A stretch of 64,000 nt of DNA from Malacoraja senta (lineage: Eukaryota): contig CM075995.1 of assembly GCA_038087875.1 (NCBI GenBank), positions 8,868,001 through 8,932,000 on the forward strand, read 5' to 3'. The stretch's first letter is position 1, and every line of letters begins with the position of its first letter. Under the pieces are notes generated by a model. It was given only the letters and a program-made list of their open reading frames with translations, was not told the DNA's origin and searched no databases. This document shows, piece after piece, positions 7,528 to 57,100 of this stretch. Both the position numbers and the translations under genes were made by a program.

Positions 7528-7868
7528 GGTCCGAAAGCCGTTGGAGAGGTCGCTGAGGGAGGAGCTACAACCGAGCGGTAGGACTTAAAAAGGAGCGCGG
7601 GGGCTTGTTCCTTACAGAGGTCCGAAAGCCGTTGGAGAGGTCGCTGAGGGAGGAGCTACAACCGAGCGGTAGGACTTAAAAAGGAGCGCGGGGGCTTGTT
7701 CCTTACAGAGGTCCGAAAGCCGTTGGAGAGGTCGCTGAGGGAGGAGCTACAACCGAGCGGTAGGACTTAAAAAGGAGCGCGGGGGCTTGTTCCTTACAGA
7801 GGTCCGAAAGCCGTTGGAGAGGTCGCTGAGGGAGGAGCTACAACCGAGCGGTAGGACTTAAAAAGGAG
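7528..7868 (+). repeat. 91-bp tandem monomers (~3.75 identical copies) in the CR1 5'UTR
   Basis: Unit starts ggtccgaaagccg at 7528, 7619, 7710 and 7801. Confidence 0.95.
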
Positions 7869-7983: not shown

Positions 7984-8165
7984 TGTATTGTAGCAGTTTG
8001 TTTTGTATTGTAGCAGTTTGTTTTGTATTGTAGCAGTTTGTTTTGTATTGTAGCAGTTTGTTTTGTATTGTAGCAGTTTGTTTTGTATTGTAGCAGTTTG
8101 TTTTGTATTGTAGCAGTTTGTTTTGTATTGTAGCAGTTTGTTTTGTATTCTAGCAGTTTGTTTTA
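7984..8165 (+). repeat. 20-bp tandem repeat (TGTATTGTAGCAGTTTGTTT)~9 in the CR1 5'UTR
   Basis: Directly visible, immediately upstream of ORF1. Confidence 0.95.
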
Positions 8166-8189
8166 TATTCTATCCAGGGTAAGGGGAGT

Positions 8190-9125
8190 ATGACAGCCAG
8201 GGCAGTTTACTGTTCTGGATGTCAGATGTGGGAAGTCAAGGAGTCTGTTAGCCCTCCAGACGTCCACATCTGCGCCAGGTGTATCGAGATGGGGCTCCTA
8301 ATGGACCGTATTAGGAACCTGGAGCAGCAGCTCGATGACCTCCGTCTGGTCAGGGAGAGCGAGGAAGTCATTGAGAGGAGTTACAGGGATGTGGTCACTC
8401 CAACACCACAGGAGGCAGGCAAGTGGATCACGGTTGGGAGAGGCAAGGGGCACAGGCAGGGACTAGAGAGTACCCCGGTGGCTGTACACCTTGACAATAA
8501 GTACTCCTGTTTGAGCACTGTTGGGGTGGACAGCCTACCTGGGGGTAGCGACAGCGGCCGGGCCTCTGGTATAGAGACCGGTCCTGTTGCTCAGAAGGGT
8601 AAGGAAAAGAAGAGGAGGGCAATATTAATAGGGGACTCTATAGTTAGGGGGTCAGACAGGCGATTCTGTGGACGCAGTCGGGAGACCCGGATGGTAGTTT
8701 GCCTCCCTGGTGCCAGGGTCTGTGATGTGTCCCAACGTGTCCAAGATATCCTGAAAGGGCAGGGAGAGGAGCCCGAGGTCGTGATACATATAGGTACCAA
8801 TGACATAGGTAAAAAAAGAGAAGAGGTCCTGAAAGGAGAATTTAGGGAGTTAGGAGGGGAGTTAAAGAGAAGGACAGCAAAGGTAACAATCTCGGGATTA
8901 CTGCCTGTACCACGCGACAGTGAGAGTAGGAATGGAGCGAGGTGGAGGATAAATGCGTGGCTGAAGGACTGGTGCAGAAGGCAGGGATTCAAATTTCTGG
9001 ATCATTGGGACTTCTTTTGTGGAAGGTTCGACCTGTACAAAAAGGATGGGTTGCACTTGAACCTGAGGGGGACCGATATCCTGGCGGGGAGATCTGCAAA
9101 GGCTACTGGGGAGACTTTAAACTAG
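8190..9125 (+). CDS. CR1 ORF1 (CxxC...CxxC zinc finger/leucine zipper + SGNH esterase domain)
   Basis: CSGC...CARC, GDSIVR, HIGTND and DGLHL motifs; 311 aa, intact. Confidence 0.9.
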   Translation: MTARAVYCSGCQMWEVKESVSPPDVHICARCIEMGLLMDRIRNLEQQLDDLRLVRESEEVIERSYRDVVTPTPQEAGKWITVGRGKGHRQGLESTPVAVHLDNKYSCLSTVGVDSLPGGSDSGRASGIETGPVAQKGKEKKRRAILIGDSIVRGSDRRFCGRSRETRMVVCLPGARVCDVSQRVQDILKGQGEEPEVVIHIGTNDIGKKREEVLKGEFRELGGELKRRTAKVTISGLLPVPRDSESRNGARWRINAWLKDWCRRQGFKFLDHWDFFCGRFDLYKKDGLHLNLRGTDILAGRSAKATGETLN

Positions 9126-12100
9126 AATGGTTGGGGGGAGGGACTCAAATAGAGAATGCTATTAGACAGTGTGTGAGGCAGGAGGCAGAGAAGGAAAGCA
9201 CTCAGACCCAACATGTAGGGGGGAAAGAAGAAAACAATAATAAACAGAGAATAAGAGGTGGTGGGGTTCTTAAATGGGTGAGCAGAGAAACAGAGGGGTG
9301 TAAAATGCGGGCGGAAGCAATAGGTAGCAAGGTGAAAGGTAAAAGTGGCAGGCAGACAAATCCAGGACAAAAATCAAAAAGAGCCACTTTTCAACATAAT
9401 TGTATAAGGGGTAAGAGCGTTGTAAAAACAAGTCTGAAGGCTTTGTGTCTCAATGCAAGGAGCATTCGTAATAAGGTGGATGAGTTGAACGTGCAGATAG
9501 CAATTAATGATTATGATATAGTTGGGATCACGGAGACATGGCTCCAAGGTGACCAAGGCTGGGAGCTGAACATCCAGGGATATTCAATATTCAGGAGGGA
9601 TAGAGAGAAAGGAAAAGGAGGTGGGGTGGCGTTGCTGGTTAGAGAGGAGATTAACGCAGTGGAAAGGAAGGACATTAGCTTGGAGGATGTGGAATCGGTA
9701 TGGGTAGAGCTGCGAAACACTAAGGGGCAGAAAACGCTGGTGGGCGTTGTGTACAGGCCACCTAGCAGTAGTAGTGAAGTTGGGGATGGCATCAAACAGG
9801 AAATTAGAAATGCGTGCAACAAAGGCAAAACAGTTATAATGGGTGACTTCAATCTACATATAGATTGGGTGAATCAAATTGGCAGGGGTGCTGAGGAAGA
9901 GGATTTCTTGGAATGTATGAGGGATAGTTATCTAAACCAACATGTAGAGGAACCAACGAGAGAGCAGGCTATTCTAGACTGGGTATTGAGTAATGAGGAA
10001 GGGTTAGTTAGCAGACTTGTTGTGCGTGCCCCCTTGGGAAAGAGTGATCATAATATGGTTGAGTTCTTCATTAGGATGGAGAGTGACATTGTTAATTCAG
10101 AAACAACGGTTCTGAACTTAAAGAAAGGTAACTTTGAGGGTATGAGACATGAATTGGCCAAGATTGACTGGCAATTAGTTCTAAAAGGGTTGACGGTGGA
10201 TATGCAATGGAAGGCATTTAAAGACTGCATGGATGAACTACAAAAATTGTTCATCCCAGTTTGGCAAAAGAATAAATCAAGGAAGGTAGTGCATCCGTGG
10301 ATAACAAGGGAAATCAGGGATAGTATCAAAGCAAAAGATGATGCGTACAAATTAGCCAGAAAAAGCAGCATACCAGAGGACTGGGAGAAATTCAGAGACC
10401 AGCAGAGGAGGACAAAGGGCTTAATTAGGAAAGGGAAAATAGATTATGAAAGGAAACTGGCAGGGAACATAAAAACTGACTGCAAAAGTTTTTATAGATA
10501 TGTGAAGAGAAAGAGATTAGTTAAATCAAATGTAGGCCCTTGCAGTCAGAAACAGGTGAATTGATCATGGGGAACAAGGATATGGCAGACCAATTGAATA
10601 ACTACTTTGGTTCCGTCTTCACTAAGGAAGACATAAATAATCTGCCGGAAATAGCAGGGGGCCGCGGGTCAAAGGAGATGGAGGAACTGAGTGAAATCCA
10701 GGTTAGTCGGGAAGTGGTGTTGGGTAAATTGAATGGATTAAAGGCCGATAAATCACCAGGGCCAGATAGGCTGCATCCCAGAGTACTTAAGGAAGTAGCT
10801 CCAGAAATAGTGGATGCATTAGTGATAATTTTTCAAAACTCTTTAGATTCTGGAGTAGTTCCTGAGGATTGGAGGGTAGCAAACGTAACCCCACTTTTTA
10901 AGAAGGGAGGGAGAGAGAAAACGGGGAATTACAGACCAGTTAGTCTAACATCGGTAGTGGGGAAACTGCTAGAGTCAGTTATTAAAGATGGGATAGCAGC
11001 ACATTTGGAAAGTGGTGAAATCATTGGACAAAGTCAGCATGGATTTACGAAAGGTAAATCGTGTCTGACGAATCTTATAGAATTTTTCGAGGATGTAACT
11101 AGTAGAGTGGATAGGGGAGAACCAGTGGATGTGTTGTATCTGGACTTTCAGAAGGCTTTCGACAAGGTACCACATAAGAGATTAGGATACAAACTTAAAT
11201 CACACGGTATTGGGGGTTCAGTATTGATGTGGATAGAGAACTGGCTGGCAAACAGGAAGCAAAGAGTAGGAGTAAACGGGTCCTTTTCACAATGGCAGGC
11301 AGTGACTAGTGGGGTACCACAAGGCTCAGTGCTGGGACCCCAGCTATTTACAATTTATATTAATGATCTGGACGAGGGAATTGAAAGCAACATCTCCAAG
11401 TTTGCGGATGACACTAAGCTGGGGGGCAGTGTTAGCTGTGAGGAGGATGCTAGGAGACTGCAAGGTGACTTGGATAGGCTGGGTGAGTGGGCAAATGTTT
11501 GGCAGATGCAGTATAATGTGGATAAATGTGAGGTTATCCACTTTGGTAGCAAAAACGGGAAGGCAGACTATTATCTAAATGGTGGCCGATTAGGAAATGG
11601 GGAGATGCAGCGAGACCTGGGTGTCATGGTACACCAGTCATTGAAAGTAGGCATGCAGGTGCAGCAGGCAGTGAAGAAAGCGAATGGTATGTTGGCCTTC
11701 ATAGCAAGAGGATTTGAGTATAGGAGCAGTGAGGTTCTACTGCAGTTGTACAGGGTCTTGGTGAGACCACACCTGGAGTATTGCGTACAGTTTTGGTCTC
11801 CAAATCTGAGGAAGGACATTATAGCCATAGAGGGAGTGCAGAGAAGGTTCACCAGACTGATTCCTGGGATGTCAGGACTTTCATATGAAGAAAGACTGGA
11901 TAGACTTGGCTTATACTCGCTAGAATTTAGGAGATTGAGAGGGGATCTTATAGAAACGTACAAGATTCTTATGGGGTTGGACAGGCTAGATGCAGGAAGA
12001 TTGTTCCCGATGTTGGGGAAGTCCAGGACAAGGGGTCACAGCTTAAGGATAAGGGGAAAATCCTTTAAGACCGAGATGAGGAAAAACTTTTTCACACAGA

Positions 12101-12240
12101 GAGTGGTGAATCTCTGGAACTCTCTGCCACAGAGGGTAGTTGAGGCCAGTTCATTGGCTATATTTAAGAGGGAATTAGATGTGGCCCTTGTGGCTAAAGG
12201 GATCAGGGGGTATGGAGAGAAGGCAGGTACGGGATACTGA
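9116..12240 (+). pseudogene. CR1 ORF2 (endonuclease + reverse transcriptase) with a single 1-nt frameshift near 10538
   Basis: Endonuclease motifs NARS, ITETW, MGDFN, SDH in 8942-10564; RT motifs YLDFQKAFD, GVPQGSVLGP, FADD in 10540-12240. Frames switch at ggccct (expected GPLQSE). Confidence 0.9.
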
Positions 12241-12395
12241 GTTGGATGATCAGCCATGATCGTATTGAATGGCGGTGCAGGCTCGAAGGGCCGAATGGCC
12301 TACTCCTGCACCTAATTTCTATGTATCTATGTATCTATGTCCCTCTTAAATCCCTGCCATTTCACATTCTGTCCAAATGTCTTTTAAAAGCCGTA

Positions 12396-12935
12396 GAAGG
12401 GTCTTGACCCGAACCGTCACCCATTCCTTCTCTCCACAGATGCTGGCTGACCCGCTGAGTTACTCCAGCACTCTGTGAAACGTCACCTATCCATGTTCTC
12501 CACAGATGCTGCCTGATCCACTGAGTTACTCCAGCACTCTGTGAAACGTCACCTATCCATTTTCTCCACAGATGCTGCCTGACCCGCTGAGTTACTCCAG
12601 CACTCTGTGAAACGTCACCTATCCATGTTCCCCACATATGCTGCCTGACCCACTGAGTTACTCCAGCACTCTGTGAAACGTCACCTATCCATGTTCTCCA
12701 CAGATGCTGCCTGATCCACTGAGTTACTCCAGCACTCTGTGAAACGTCACCTATCCATTTTCTCCACAGATGCTGCCTGACCCGCTGAGTTACTCCAGCA
12801 CTCTGTGAAACGTCACCTATCCATGTTCCCCACAGATGCTGCCTGACCCACTGAGTTACTCCAGCACTCTGTGAAACGTCACCTATCCATGTTCTCCACA
12901 GATGCTGCCTGACCCGCTGAGTTCGTCCAGCATTT
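12396..12935 (+). repeat. 66-bp tandem array (~8 units)
   Basis: Starts with agaagggtcttgacccgaaccgtc. Confidence 0.95.
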
Positions 12936-13019
12936 TGTGTCTATCGTCGGTGTAAACCAGCACCTACAGTTCCTTCCTACACATTTTAAAAGCCATAATT
13001 TGCTGCATTTTATGTTTAA

Positions 13020-24710: not shown

Positions 24711-24714
24711 CCTG

Positions 24715-25515
24715 GATAAAGGTGAGCTTATCCATTTTGGTGGCAAAAACGGGAAAGCAGACTATTATCTAAATGGTGGCCGACTAGGAAAAGGGGAGAT
24801 GCAGCGAGACCTGGGTGTCATGGTACACCAGTCATTGAAAGTAGGCATGCAGGTGCAGCAGGCAGTGAAGAAAGCGAATGGTATGTTAGCTTTCATAGCA
24901 AAAGGATTTGAGTATAGGAGCAGGGAGGTTCTACTGCAGTTGTACAGGGTCTTGGTGAGACCACACCTGGAGTATTGCATACAGTTTTGGTCTCCAAATC
25001 TGAGGAATGACATTATTGCCATAGAGGGAGTGCAGAGAAGGTTCACCAGACTGATTCCTGGGATGTCAGGACTGTCTTATCAAGAAAGACTGGATAGACT
25101 TGGTTTATACTCACTAGAATTTATGAGATTGAGAGGGGATCTTATAGAAACTTACAACATTCTTAAGGGGTTGGACAGGCTAGATGCAGGAAGATTGCTC
25201 CCGATGTTGGGGAAGTCCAGGACAAGGGTCACAGCTTAAGGATAAGGGGGAAATCCTTTAAAACCGAGATGAGAAGAACTTTTTTCACACAGAGAGTGGT
25301 GAATCTCTGGAACTCTGCCACAGAGGGTAGTCGAGGCCAGTTCATTGCCTATATTTAAGAGGGAGTTAGATGTGCCCTTGTGGCTAAAGGAATCAGAGGG
25401 TATGGAGAGAAGGCAGTACGGGATACTGAGTTGGATGATCAGCCATGATCATATTGAATGGCGGTGCAGGCTCGAAGGCCGAATGGCCTACTCCTGCACC
25501 TAATTTCTATGTTTC
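24715..25515 (+). mobile_element. CR1 3' fragment, same subfamily as the full-length copy
   Basis: Highly similar to 11520-12330. Confidence 0.9.
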
Positions 25516-28251
25516 TCCCTCCACCACCTCCAGTTTAAATTCCATTTGAAATATTTTGGAAGACCAAGAAACCAAGAACCAAGAACACAACATACCAGAA
25601 ATTCAACATCTACTTATTTTCCAACTGCTTTCCTATGAAGTATCTTATTTAAAGCCGGATAATGTCCAAGTGTATAGTGTAGAGCTACAGGGAGAGGTTG
25701 AGTAGGCTGGGAGGTAGACAAAAGTGCTGGAGAAACTCAGCGGGTGCAGCAGCATCTATGGAGCGAAGGAAATAGGCAACGTTTTGGGCCGAAACCCTTC
25801 TTCAGACTAGGTACTTGAGCAGGCTGGGTCTCTATTCCTTGGAGCGCAGAAGGATGGGGGGTGATCTTGTAGAGGTGTACAATATCATAAGAGGAATAGA
25901 TCAGGTCTCTTGCCCATAGGTGAATCAAGGACCAGAGGACAAAGGTTTAAGGTGATGGGGTGGGGGGGGGGGGTGGGGGGTAGATCGGAACCCAATGGGT
26001 AACCTTTTCACACAAAGGGTGGGGGGTGTATGGAATGAGCTGCTGGAGGAGGTAGGCACTATTGTAATGGTTAAGAAGCAGTTAGACAGGTACATGGATA
26101 GGACAGGTTTAGAGGGATATGGGCCAAATGCAGGCAGGTGGGACTAGTGTCGATGGGATATGTTGGCTGGTTTGGGCAAGTTGGGCTGAAGGGCCTGTTT
26201 CCACACTATCACTCTATGACTCTATCTCAACACTTAATCACAGATTTGACATTTAATCAATAACATTGATGATTTGTACCACAATTCTTCCCTCTTGTAC
26301 ATCCCACGCTAATTCCTATCAATTAATTTAGGATCCACAGCGGTTTCATAATGTATTTTAATTCTAATTGTAAAATTCCCCAGGTGCTGACGAGACTAAC
26401 AAGGTTGTATTTACCCTTGTGAATGCACCACAGTGGCTCAGTTCAGTTTAGTTTATTGTCACGTGTACCAAGTGTACAGTGAAAAGCTTTTGTTGCGTGC
26501 TATCCAGTCAGAGGAAAGATTATACATGATTACAGTCGAGCCGTTCTCAGTGTACAGATAAATGATAAGGGAATAATGTTTAGTGCAAGGTAAAGCCAGC
26601 AAAGTCCAATCAAAGATAGTCCGAGGGTCACCAATGAGGTAGATAGCAGTTCAGCACTGCTCTCTGGTTGTGGTAGGATGGTTCAGTTGCCTGATAACAG
26701 CTGGGAAGAAACTGTCCCTGAATCTGGAGGTGTGCGCTTTCACACTTCTGTACCATTTGCCCGATGGGAGAGGGGGAGAAGAGAGAGTGACCGGGGGTGA
26801 GACTGGTCCTTGATGATGCTGCTGGCCTTGCCGAGGCAGCGTGAGGTGTAGATGGAGTCAATGGAAGGGAGGTTGGTTTGTGTGACGGTCTGGGCTGCGT
26901 CCACAATTCTCTGCAATTTCTTGTGGTCTTGGATGGAGCTGTTCCCAAACCGTGCCGCGATGCATCCCGATAAAATGCTTTCTACGGCGCATCTGTAGAA
27001 GTTGGTGAGACTTGTTTGTGAGAAGTTGTAAACGCACACCTCCAAATTTAGGGGACAGTTTCTTCCGGCTGTTATCAAGCAACTGAACCGTCCTCTCACC
27101 AACTAGAGAGCGGTCCTGACCTCCCAACTACCTCATTGGCGGCCTTCAAACTATCTTTAATCGGACCTGACTGGACTTTGCACTAAACATTATTCCCTTT
27201 ATCCTGTATCTGTACACTGTGGACGGCTTGACTAATCATGTATTGTCTTTCCACTGACTGGATAGCACGCAACAAAAGCTTTTCACTGTACCTCGGTACA
27301 CGTGACAATAATCTAAACTAAAATAAACAAGCGCATGAGAGGAATAGGTTGGGTAAACGCACAGAGTCTTTTGCCAAGAGTAGTGCAATCCAGAACCATA
27401 CGACATAGTTTAAGGCGAGGGGGGGGGGGGGGAAGTTTTAATAGGAACCTGAGGGGTAACTTTTTCTACAAAAAGGGAGGCGGGTGTACGGAACGAGCTG
27501 CCGGAAGAGGTAGTTGGGGCTGGGACTATCCAATGTTGAAAAGACATTAGAACAGGTACATGGATAGGACAGGTTTAGAGGGATATGGGCCAAGCATGGG
27601 CAGGTTGGACTAGTGTAGATCGGACATGTTGGGCAGTGTGGGCAAGTTGGGCCGAAGGCCTGTTTCCGCGCTCTACGACTCTATCCTGGCATCACGGGTA
27701 GATAGGGTGACAAAAAAGGCTCATGGCAGGCTGGCATTCATCAGTCAGGTTACTGGGTATAGAAGTTGGGTTGAGGACGTTCTCCTTCTCTCTCCGACGA
27801 GAGTTCTGCAGCATCCTCTCTCGCAGCTCGACCCGAAACGTGGCCCATTCCTTCTCTCCAGAGATGCTGCCTCACCCGCTGAGTTACTCCAGCACTCTGT
27901 GTCTATAGAAGTTGGGTTGTTATGTTATATTTGTACAAGGCATTGGTGAGGGGCGCACTTGGAGTATTGTGTTCAGTTTTGGTCTCCCTGCTGCAGGGTT
28001 GATGGCATAGACTCACTGAGTGACACAGCGGGCAAACAGGCCCTTTGTCCCATCTTGCCCAAACCGACCAACATGTCCCATCTGCACTAGTCCCACCTGC
28101 CTGCGTTTAGCCCACAGCCCTCCAAACCTGTCCTATCCATGTACCTATCTAACATTTGGATAGTCCCAGGCTCAACAACCTCCTCCGGCAGCCCGTTCCA
28201 TACACCCACCAGCCTTTGTGTAAAACAGGTCACCCCTCAGGTTCCTATTTA

Positions 28252-54136: not shown

Positions 54137-57100
54137 ATACCGCACTCAGTTTACTCCAGAATAGACCATTTCGTAATGCAGAAAGAAGACTGTTATAGGG
54201 TAACGGATTGCAGAATTGGTGTGGCAGACGTATCAGACCATAATGCCATATTCTTAACAATTCAAATGGACAGTGGAAGGAAAACACAGTGTGGCGATTA
54301 AATGTTGGAATACTGAATGATAAAACAACTGTTAATGGCATTAAATTGGAAATCAAAAGTTATCTAGAGGAGAATGACAATGGGGAGGTGGACCCATCCA
54401 TACTATGGGACTCATTGAAGGCTGTAATACGAGGTAGGTTAATAGCTAGGGCATCATATATTAAAAAGGCCAGAATGAAAACATATAATAAGTTGATATT
54501 AGACCTGAAGGATTTAGAACAGAAGTACAAAAATAATAAGGACCAGAGAACTTATAAACAAATAGAAAATTTGAGGGGACAAATGCACGGAATATTGGGT
54601 CAAGAGGTGGAGAAAAAAGCAAGATTTGTAAAACAGGCACATTATGAGCTAGGTGCTAAATCCACTAAAATACTTGCCCGGAGGCTACGCAAACAACAGG
54701 CTGACAACACCATACACAAAATTAAGGACCCCCTGTACACAGTAATTGAAGAGTGATCCAAAAGAAATAGAATATATCTTAGATAATAGACAATAGGTGC
54801 AGGAGTAGGCCATTCGAGGAATCTTCCAGGAATATTATAAGGAATTATATACACAAACCTCTACAGTAGATGGGGAATCAATGAGGACTTTTTTTAAGTA
54901 CGATAGATCTGCCCTGTATTGGAGAGACACAAAATAAAATAATCACAGCAGAAATATCGCTGGAGGAGATAGAGAAGGCAATTGGTGGGATGAAAACAAA
55001 CAAGGCCCCAGGCAGCGAAAGTTTCCCTGTAGTATGGTATAAAATATTTCGGAATGAGCTGAACCCACTTCTTCTGAGAACCTTTAACTGGATTATCAAA
55101 GAAGGCAAGACACCCCCGTCATGGAAAGAGGCAATTATAATATTAATCCCCAAAGAGAACAAAGACAAGGAAAATTGTACCAACTACAGACCGATATCAA
55201 TTCTAAATGTGGACTATAAATTATATTCTTCAATTATCTCCAAACGATTTGAAACGTTCATGCCAGATGTAATTGATGAAGACCAGACTGGTTTTATAAT
55301 AGGCAGACAAACACAGGACAGTATTAGAAGAATCCTACATATAATACACAAGATTCAAAAGGAAAGTACGCACGCTGTCCTGATAAGCCTAGATGCGGAG
55401 AAGGCTTTCCATAGGGTTAATTGGGATTTCTTATATCAAACACTAGAAAGATTTGGCTTTACTGAAGATTCAATGCAAGTTATTAAAGCAATTTACCAGC
55501 AACCTACTGCAAGAGTAAAGGTGAATGGGTCCTTAACTGAGAGATTTGTGTTAGGAAGAGGAACGAGACAGGGATGTTGTCTCAGCCCTACCCTGTTTGC
55601 TATATATATTGAACCATTGGCTCAAGCGATTCGTCAAGATAGGGAACTGAGGGGAGTAACTATAAGAGACAAAGAACATAAAATTGGCCTTTTTGCAGAT
55701 GACGTAATGATGTATCTCACGGAAGTAAACGCCTCCTTTCCAAGGATGATGGGGATCATAGAGAAATTTGATTTTTATGCAGGATATAAAGTGAATATTT
55801 CAAAAACTCAAACCCTCCTATTTAATTGTGCTCCTCCAGAAGAAATCAAACAAAAGTATAATATTAAATGGGATTCAAAATGAATCAAATACCTAGGGAT
55901 ATATATAACAAAAAATATATCAATGTTGTATGGGGCCAATTATAATCACATCAACCAAAACATAAGAAAGGATATAGAAAGATGGTCCATCTACCCAATG
56001 GATTTTAGTAGTAAGATAAATGTGGTGAACATTAATATTTTGCCAAGACTATTGTACTTGTTTCAATCTCTGCCAATAGAGATACCATTAAAACAATTCA
56101 CGGAATGGGATAAATTAATATCTCGATTTACTTGGGGAGGGAAGAAGGCCAGAGTTCGATACACTACACTCCAGTTGCCAAAGGACAAAGGTGGAATGGC
56201 ACTTCCAAATTTTAGGATATATTTCTATGCAGCCCAACTTCGACCACTAATTAATTGGTGTCAGGACAGCTATATAGCTAGGTGGAAAGAGATTGAGACA
56301 TATATCCCTGACTTCCACATCCAAACACTCTTGGGAGAAAAAGTGCTTCCTGGACATATCAGGAGTATAATCGATCCAATAACGATATTTACTTTAGAAA
56401 CCTGGTTTGCTCTTACCAGACAACTTAAACTGAATAAAGGACAAAAAGTTTTAAGATGGATAGCTGTGGATAATGAATTTAAACCAGGGATGTATGACTC
56501 AACATTTAAAGAGTGGATGAAGAAAGGAATGACTGCATTTTGTACTGTTATTGAAAATGGAGACCTAAGAAGTTTTCAAGATTTGAAGGATAGATTTGCA
56601 CTTCGGAACCAAGACTTGTTTAGATCCCTCCAACTGAGAGATTATTACAATAAAAAAATAAAAAGGGAGGCACTAGAAGAAAAGAATCCAGTGACAGTTA
56701 ATACGTATCATCAAAAACCATCAAGGATTATTTCTAAACTTTATCATAGTTTAATGGAATGTCAAGCTAAAACTACATTGTATGTCAAATTTAAGTGGGA
56801 AAAGGAATTGAACATCACAATCTCAGAAGAAGAATGGCATCATGTGTGGGTAACACTACAGACATCCACTAATTCACAAAAATGGAGAATTTAATTGGAA
56901 ATTTTTGATTTGTTTCTTTAGTACGCCTAACATAAAAAGCAAGCAAATTCTAAGGCAGCAAATATGCTGGAGGCAATGTGGCCAAACAGACGCAAATCAT
57001 GCACATCTCTTCTGGAGTTGCCCAAAAATAGAACCATTTTGGGACAGAGTGAATTCAGAATTAAAGGAGGTATTAGGATATATAGTCTCCAAGAAGTGTT

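Follow-up and report, generated by a model that had tools for sequence, protein, structure and literature searches.

LINE ORF2s are generally assumed to be translated by reinitiation. Among viral −1 frameshift sites, U_UUA_AAC is that of coronaviruses and U_UUU_UUA that of HIV-1. Viral signals of this kind consist of an X_XXY_YYZ heptamer and a 3′ stimulator, with GUU a tolerated variant of XXX (PMC3542737, in the sections available), and engineered quadruplexes placed after UUUAAAC give up to about 7% shifting at spacers of 6–8 nt (excerpt of PMC3919603). Among non-LTR elements, the legend of a review figure states that Dictyostelium TRE5-A and TRE3-A need a −1 frameshift for ORF2 (PMC5911963), HeT-A is given a frameshift within gag (excerpt of PMC5009743), and +1 frameshifting or reinitiation is stated for Paramecium non-LTR elements in the excerpt at hand. 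According to the available part of a review, SART1 reinitiation needs a downstream RNA structure; L1 ORF2 is ascribed to unconventional initiation, with AUG-independent initiation considered, in PMC5009743, whose available text does not mention CR1. CR1 dominates among the retrotransposons of most vertebrates, and an SGNH esterase in ORF1 is a feature of vertebrate canonical CR1 (both from the available text of PMC13343379). A word search for ‘frameshift’ and ‘slip’ in the available main text of PMC13343379 and PMC3905857 found no treatment of the ORF1–ORF2 junction, and excerpts of further papers were compared (PMC2881922, PMC11835228, PMC5405496, PMC1925062, PMC4120745, PMC10275272 and PMC8665684). 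Within the excerpts searched, translation of CR1 ORF2 is unaddressed, and no report of CR1 frameshifting was found in that literature; older turtle and chicken CR1 papers and Repbase notes, which lie outside its scope, may mention an overlap or frameshifting.

CR1-clade LINEs end in a short 3′ tandem-repeat tail in place of poly(A). The window, a 64,000-nucleotide stretch of Malacoraja senta DNA, contains a near-full-length CR1 LINE at about 7.5–12.3 kb, and this copy has several of the clade’s features: an SGNH esterase in ORF1, an APE-type endonuclease (EN) together with a reverse transcriptase (RT) in ORF2, and a tandem-repeat 3′ tail (all its parts given here lie on the + strand). A 91-bp tandem array of 3.7 identical copies (7528–7868), presumably within the 5′ UTR, is followed by a 20-bp array of 9.3 copies (7984–8169) immediately 5′ of ORF1 (8190–9125). 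The 311-aa ORF1 product ends in ETLN and comprises N-terminal Cys motifs, a long helix (residues 29–69), a disordered linker and an SGNH/GDSL esterase (PF13472, E = 3.5e-14; E = 4.7e-39 to PDB 4c1b, an ORF1 esterase); its nearest homologues, from Leucoraja, are 80–83% identical. ORF2 encodes the endonuclease at 9443–10051 (PF03372, E = 1.7e-13) and the reverse transcriptase at 10525–12240 (PF00078, E = 2.7e-32), and the tail consists of three 8-nt units without poly(A) (12316–12339). In an RT tree built without named reference elements, the window element groups with bird-type and other relatives, and its junction matches consensus sequences labelled CR1 in the available portion of the PMC13343379 table. 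No convincing target-site duplication was found at this copy, and the other 29 CR1 matches in the window are 3′ fragments that stop short of the junction.

The window copy is a defective CR1 member. Its ORF2 changes frame near 10525–10543, a lesion rather than a programmed site, across which the intact homologues P0098 and P0099 align in two frames. Full EN–RT therefore cannot come from this copy, and a frameshift signal at its junction is a trait of the family, not a property of the copy itself.

ORF1 ends in the slippery heptamer T_TTA_AAC (9116–9122), which sits in the ORF1 phase and is followed directly by the ORF1 stop TAG (9123–9125; TAG, TAA or TGA in relatives). The ORF2 frame (8930–10564) is −1 relative to ORF1 and reads F-K-L-E over the site. 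The first-pass annotation had described the phased heptamer and stop, the −1 frame open across them, a G-rich tract 3′ of the heptamer and an in-frame ATG near 9305, and we confirmed all of these at their coordinates. The window thus carries an X_XXY_YYZ heptamer in the upstream frame, as in known −1 signals. TTTAAAC occurs 13 times on the two strands of the window, followed by TAG in one instance; with the heptamer alone so common, the case depends on relatives. Judged from sequence comparison, what goes beyond chance is the phased conservation of the heptamer in those relatives, not the heptamer itself.

We examined 44 loci, of which 14 have the esterase end of ORF1 in view and 29 do not; L025, which is GC-rich with a weak GDSL match, was left out. 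A correctly phased heptamer is present in 12 of the 14, these loci being related to one another and not independent. It is TTTAAAC in nine loci, which we call bird-type from their likeness to stork proteins, and at the same position GGGAAAC in L001, GTTAAAC in L002 and TTTTTTA in L032; in L003 and L022, where ORF1 has a break just upstream, the site was placed by motif. L028 and L030 have no heptamer and no downstream EN match. Heptamers upstream of EN in two further loci (L034 and L038) were dropped because the stop follows in the −1 frame. Given the encoded amino acids, slippery codons are expected by chance with P = 0.06–0.17 per site, and our own product of these values over about five lineages is near 5e-6.

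The families of PMC13343379 were inspected by eye in 400-letter portions of its consensus table, which cover only a fraction of them. TTTAAAC followed by TAG or TAA lies at the ORF1 end in 17 of 20 matches there, in families that the name codes assign to alligator, crocodile, bowfin, frog, elephant shark, stingray, sawfish, catshark, dogfish and coelacanth; one entry with the motif is labelled Crack, and a lizard family has TGA as the stop after the heptamer. CR1 entries in these portions that were found through the upstream esterase motif carry the heptamer–stop in every case with the end in view (7/7).

To avoid circularity at the protein level, we cut a profile 12 residues before the stop and searched it against 1.84 billion cluster representatives. 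Of 150 listed matches, 130 extend to the end of the profile and 112 carry a tail of 5–30 residues; the terminal tripeptide is compatible with a strict X_XXY_YYZ in 64 of these 112 listed representatives, against a background of 3.9%, a compatibility of protein that is not DNA proof. A compatible tripeptide occurs at +9 to +15 in 91 of 123 listed representatives and is absent from the other 32, compared with 6–55% in 20 control windows. The ORF1 ends are of types LN (46), KN (15), GN (13), FL (4) and FF (4), with 12 changes between types on a quick tree, of which 2–4 per type are forced by well-supported branches. Swapping among exactly these five endings would not be expected from protein constraint. 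Searches of viral contigs with alignments A1 and A3 and of plasmids gave no matches; the invertebrate-type alignment A4 proved too divergent to serve as a query, and a search with alignment A5 found 0 of 3 candidates.

Downstream, the −1 frame of the window stays open for 109 codons, from the heptamer to the first endonuclease motif (9116–9442). The start of EN is in view in 11 junctions, the window included, and nine of these keep the −1 frame open between heptamer and EN, over 36–109 codons; the two closed linkers (L007 and L022) belong to decayed copies. In four of the nine open cases the −1 frame opens just 1–3 codons before the heptamer. Ahead of its endonuclease, the window has a single in-frame ATG, at 9305–9307, 179 nt after the stop, with four out-of-frame ATGs in between; an ATG at 9127 is likewise out of frame. 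Across the nine open linkers, the first in-frame ATG is found at codon 5 (four linkers), 15, 23, 29 or 64 (two linkers). A run of 60 stop-free codons before the first ATG has P = 0.005 in the window and P = 0.0003 in L001, where six out-of-frame ATGs come before the first in-frame one. Stork gene models, which are biased to open frames, have 68–82 open codons before Met in 10 of 11, and in those with the FKL motif a Met precedes EN in 11 of 11. A weak search for a natural in-frame esterase–EN–RT fusion found none among four long matches.

These ATGs bear on the strongest alternative, termination and reinitiation of the SART1 or L1 kind, in which ORF2p would be made as a separate protein from a nearby AUG or non-AUG codon after the ORF1 stop, and the heptamer and G tract would serve that step or both routes would coexist. 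Reviews, in their available parts, give ORF1-dependent reinitiation for SART1 and L1. One or more in-frame ATGs are present in every one of the nine open linkers (joint chance 0.024; 16 observed versus 12.2 expected), four bird-type loci have one 2 nt after the ORF1 stop (TAG-NN-ATG), and TAATG, the SART1 type of overlap, stands at the junction in three shark consensus families of the PMC13343379 table portions. What reinitiation leaves unexplained is that the last ORF1 codons conform to X_XXY_YYZ and change only from one slippery type to another, and that 60–80 codons are open in the −1 frame ahead of the first ATG. The position of that ATG, moreover, ranges from codon 5 to codon 64 behind as many as six out-of-frame ATGs, and a SART1-type AUG adjoining the stop in the ORF2 frame is absent in the window and present in a minority of relatives. 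The first-pass annotation had proposed as a test whether heptamer–stop and open −1 frame are conserved while the ORF2 ATG is not. Heptamer–stop and open frame are indeed kept between sharks and birds, and also in more remote relatives, and the position of the first ATG does vary, but some in-frame ATG is usual in the linker.

Sister copies in sequencing runs X1 and X3, from which we placed 12,204 and 9,465 Logan contigs, respectively, also appear to be without the ATG at 9305 (the raw-read runs X21 and X22 contributed 2 and 0 reads). Among the variants listed in X1 and X3, none of at least 4% falls at 9095–9125 and none affects this ATG. Loose ends at 9276, in 14 contigs of X1 and 45 of X3, continue straight into the EN start motif, and the base at 9277 that matches them makes up 6% (X1) and 66% (X3) of depth, which points to a sister subfamily lacking the segment that holds the ATG. 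As these sister copies begin the endonuclease at 9277, the linker of the window is apparently composite. Three single-contig joints in X3, at depths of 524–890, skip 147, 147 and a net 141 nt across the ATG in frame; non-triplet joints are found among those of lower depth. None of the 26 listed linker variants creates a stop or an ATG, and this is the sole gauge of another ATG in the sister linker. We judge reinitiation unlikely as the explanation of the junction; in families with a stop-adjacent AUG, it is possible as the sole or a second route.

Conservation of the ORF1 end could also have its cause in the protein, if the C-terminal Leu-Asn were kept for the structure of the esterase or for a partner and the DNA motif were a by-product of codon use. 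Leu-Asn ends 52 of 90 ORF1 homologues, the remainder including many fragments or gene-model fusions and distant proteins that end in GN, SN or KN, and neither L310 nor N311 varies in any of 40 aligned ORF1s (33–85% identity to the window ORF1), near-full-length rows selected by hand from the 90 matches. In a structure model of ORF1, however, residues 308–311 lie beyond the last helix with pLDDT <50 and so outside the predicted fold, and the match to the solved esterase 4c1b stops at profile position 307. Other lineages have GN, KN, FL or FF in this place, and all 13 junctions tested, a set picked for having a heptamer, are fixed for the slippery one among the synonymous choices. The heptamer is thus kept beyond what the protein needs. 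The residue before Leu-Asn is one for which a T-ending codon is impossible in just 1 of 52 proteins, versus 33 of 52 one position earlier; as position −9 also gives 0 of 52, this test is supportive only. A protein constraint of this kind is, in our estimate, highly improbable.

Least credible of all is that the site, which ends in CTAG and has a purine-rich stretch after its UAG resembling type III readthrough signals (PMC3542737, available sections), is a splice acceptor or a readthrough context in place of a shift site: no pyrimidine tract lies upstream, the stop varies among TAG, TAA and TGA while the heptamer is constant, and in the 11 junctions that extend far enough the 0 frame after the stop has 4–12 stops in every 100 codons, so that readthrough cannot reach EN.

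A −1 shift would be expected to have a stimulator 3′ of the heptamer, and the candidate in the window is the G-rich tract at 9129–9142, whose main G run begins 11 nt after the heptamer. The first run of at least four G is at +11 in 8 of 12 junctions, the window tract is within the top 0.14% of 20-nt windows by G-run score, and a G tract recurs in most consensus families in the available portions of the PMC13343379 table. The main run is 10 nt from the heptamer, beyond the usual 5–9 nt spacing, and a quadruplex is the predicted fold in just 3 of 12 junctions, two-tiered at best. In the window and in nine other junctions the sequence behind the heptamer has no significant local fold and no base-paired stimulator at 5–9 nt; L032 is the sole locus with a significant fold (z = −2.9), a stem-loop some 5 nt 3′ of the heptamer. 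The helix of GTTGGG (9130–9135) with CCCAAC (9207–9212) that the first-pass annotation drew lies where it was placed and is in the minimum-energy fold, but that fold is ordinary (z = −1.29, equalled by 18 of 200 shuffles). The 9191–9335/9339 joints of sister copies leave out the 3′ arm of the helix, other lineages lack the helix, and we rejected it as a stimulator of the family. No conserved long-range partner was found among the junctions; one candidate partner of the G tract about 428 nt upstream, seen in 3 of 11, was discarded, as it falls in the CLPG motif of the coding sequence and L001, L002 and L032 have not kept it.

The signal, its phase, its conservation, its switching among slippery types and the open linker are direct observations. 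They make it likely that CR1-clade LINEs produce EN–RT mainly as an ORF1–ORF2 fusion through programmed −1 ribosomal frameshifting. The same fusion, of the esterase ORF1 with EN–RT, had been suggested in the first-pass annotation, and the comparison of relatives supports it for the family and not for the broken copy in the window. Most ribosomes would read the last ORF1 codons as XXY YYZ and then the stop, yielding abundant ORF1p. Ribosomes would pause while their decoding sites contain the final two codons of ORF1, with the adjacent stop and the G tract keeping them there, and a minority would slip by −1 on the heptamer and continue through a flexible linker of 36–109 codons into EN–RT. The outcome would be a ratio of ORF1p to fusion like that of gag to gag-pol. 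From the junctions we infer that the shift takes place, at what rate it may do so and why ribosomes would pause; the likeliest cause of the pause in vertebrate CR1s is the stop directly behind the heptamer together with the G tract at +11, which may act as a protein-binding site or a weak quadruplex. In the distant relative L032, a conventional stem-loop would take the place of the G tract. To our knowledge, no natural stimulator of the stop-plus-G-tract type has been described.

More tentatively, the entire CR1 lineage with an esterase ORF1, invertebrate-type elements as well as those of sharks, amphibians, reptiles and birds, might have kept this gag/gag-pol-like strategy for hundreds of millions of years, with RT made solely as a −1 frameshift fusion to ORF1 and with a vertebrate shift that dispenses with a pseudoknot and has as its drivers the adjacent stop and a conserved G tract that is either bound by protein or folded as a quadruplex. 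If the frameshift reading is correct, CR1 RT is an esterase–EN–RT fusion and recoding sets its amount, annotations of ORF2 that begin at an ATG are truncated, and the junction is needed both in screens for intact elements and in CR1 expression constructs; a natural frameshift signal that is highly abundant and has an unusual stimulator would also become available.

On comparative grounds, the junction appears to hold a real and deeply conserved recoding-type signal, new for CR1 within the literature searched and a variant of a known mechanism. Vertebrate canonical CR1 and the ZfL2-1 esterase share with the window element the esterase ORF1, the APE and RT of ORF2 and, in the consensus sequences labelled CR1, the junction motif (available portions of PMC13343379 and PMC3905857; PDB 4c1b). 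SART1 and L1, as described in the excerpts, are similar in having a bicistronic LINE RNA with ORF2 dependent on translation of ORF1, and a UAAUG overlap is found in a few CR1 families; most of the CR1 junctions examined differ in lacking an AUG next to the stop, and what they conserve is the heptamer ahead of that stop. TRE5-A and TRE3-A are, like CR1, APE-type non-LTR elements with a stated −1 shift for ORF2, but they are of another clade with another ORF1 and are known here by that statement alone, whereas CR1 has a heptamer that is conserved clade-wide and switches among slippery types. The likeness to viral −1 frameshifting lies in the canonical heptamer in the upstream frame, the polymerase frame at −1, the order of structural protein upstream and enzyme downstream, and the tolerated GUU variant, which recurs in CR1 locus L002. 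In contrast to these viral systems, CR1 is a non-LTR retrotransposon, and in vertebrate CR1s the stop adjoins the heptamer and an unpaired G tract about 10 nt downstream stands where a conserved pseudoknot or stem-loop would be.

The stop codon that adjoins the slippery heptamer in the window's CR1 is not a universal companion of the motif, because one invertebrate-type clade of homologous proteins (P0295–P0341) carries the compatible K-N, an alternative slippery-compatible dipeptide of the ORF1 end, 12–14 residues ahead of the ORF1 stop and not at it. On the ORF2 side, Mycteria americana gene models (P0111–P0158) repeatedly enter ORF2 just upstream of F-K-L, the −1-frame reading across the heptamer; annotated 'hypothetical proteins' therefore already include the transframe linker. 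Among the database entries, shark/ray-type CR1 proteins or DNA also appear under the names of Pseudomonas aeruginosa, Carnobacterium and Aeromonas cavernicola (proteins P0024 and P0100, locus L031), and these are probably host DNA within bacterial assemblies.

The linker of the window's CR1, the −1-frame stretch leading from the heptamer to the endonuclease (EN), has a composite look at 9266–9277. Its first part seems to end there, at sequence with which EN begins in a sister subfamily; onto this, a second linker looks to have been joined in frame.

Frameshift-type signals may extend past the esterase CR1s. In more distant LINEs in which an esterase ORF1 was not detected (loci L035/L036, positions 2887–2893, and L043, positions 352–358), a T_TTT_TTA or G_GGA_AAT heptamer stands in −1 register to an open EN frame that has no Met upstream of EN. 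These cases were picked post hoc and serve as a lead only.

Elsewhere in the window, the 3′ end of the CR1 has 29 further matches (2.4–63.7 kb, 68–95% identical), the best at 24713–25516 (94.7% identical), and a 66-bp tandem array of 7.7 copies lies shortly downstream of the element (12431–12939). Matching tblastn hits at ~36.8–43.2 kb occur in pairs spaced ~4,013 bp apart, which suggests a tandem duplication of ~4 kb. A second RT-bearing element, AT-rich and interrupted by an in-frame stop at 55881–55883, occupies 54885–56894; its RT (RVT_1, E = 2.6e-39) shares 24% identity with that of the CR1.
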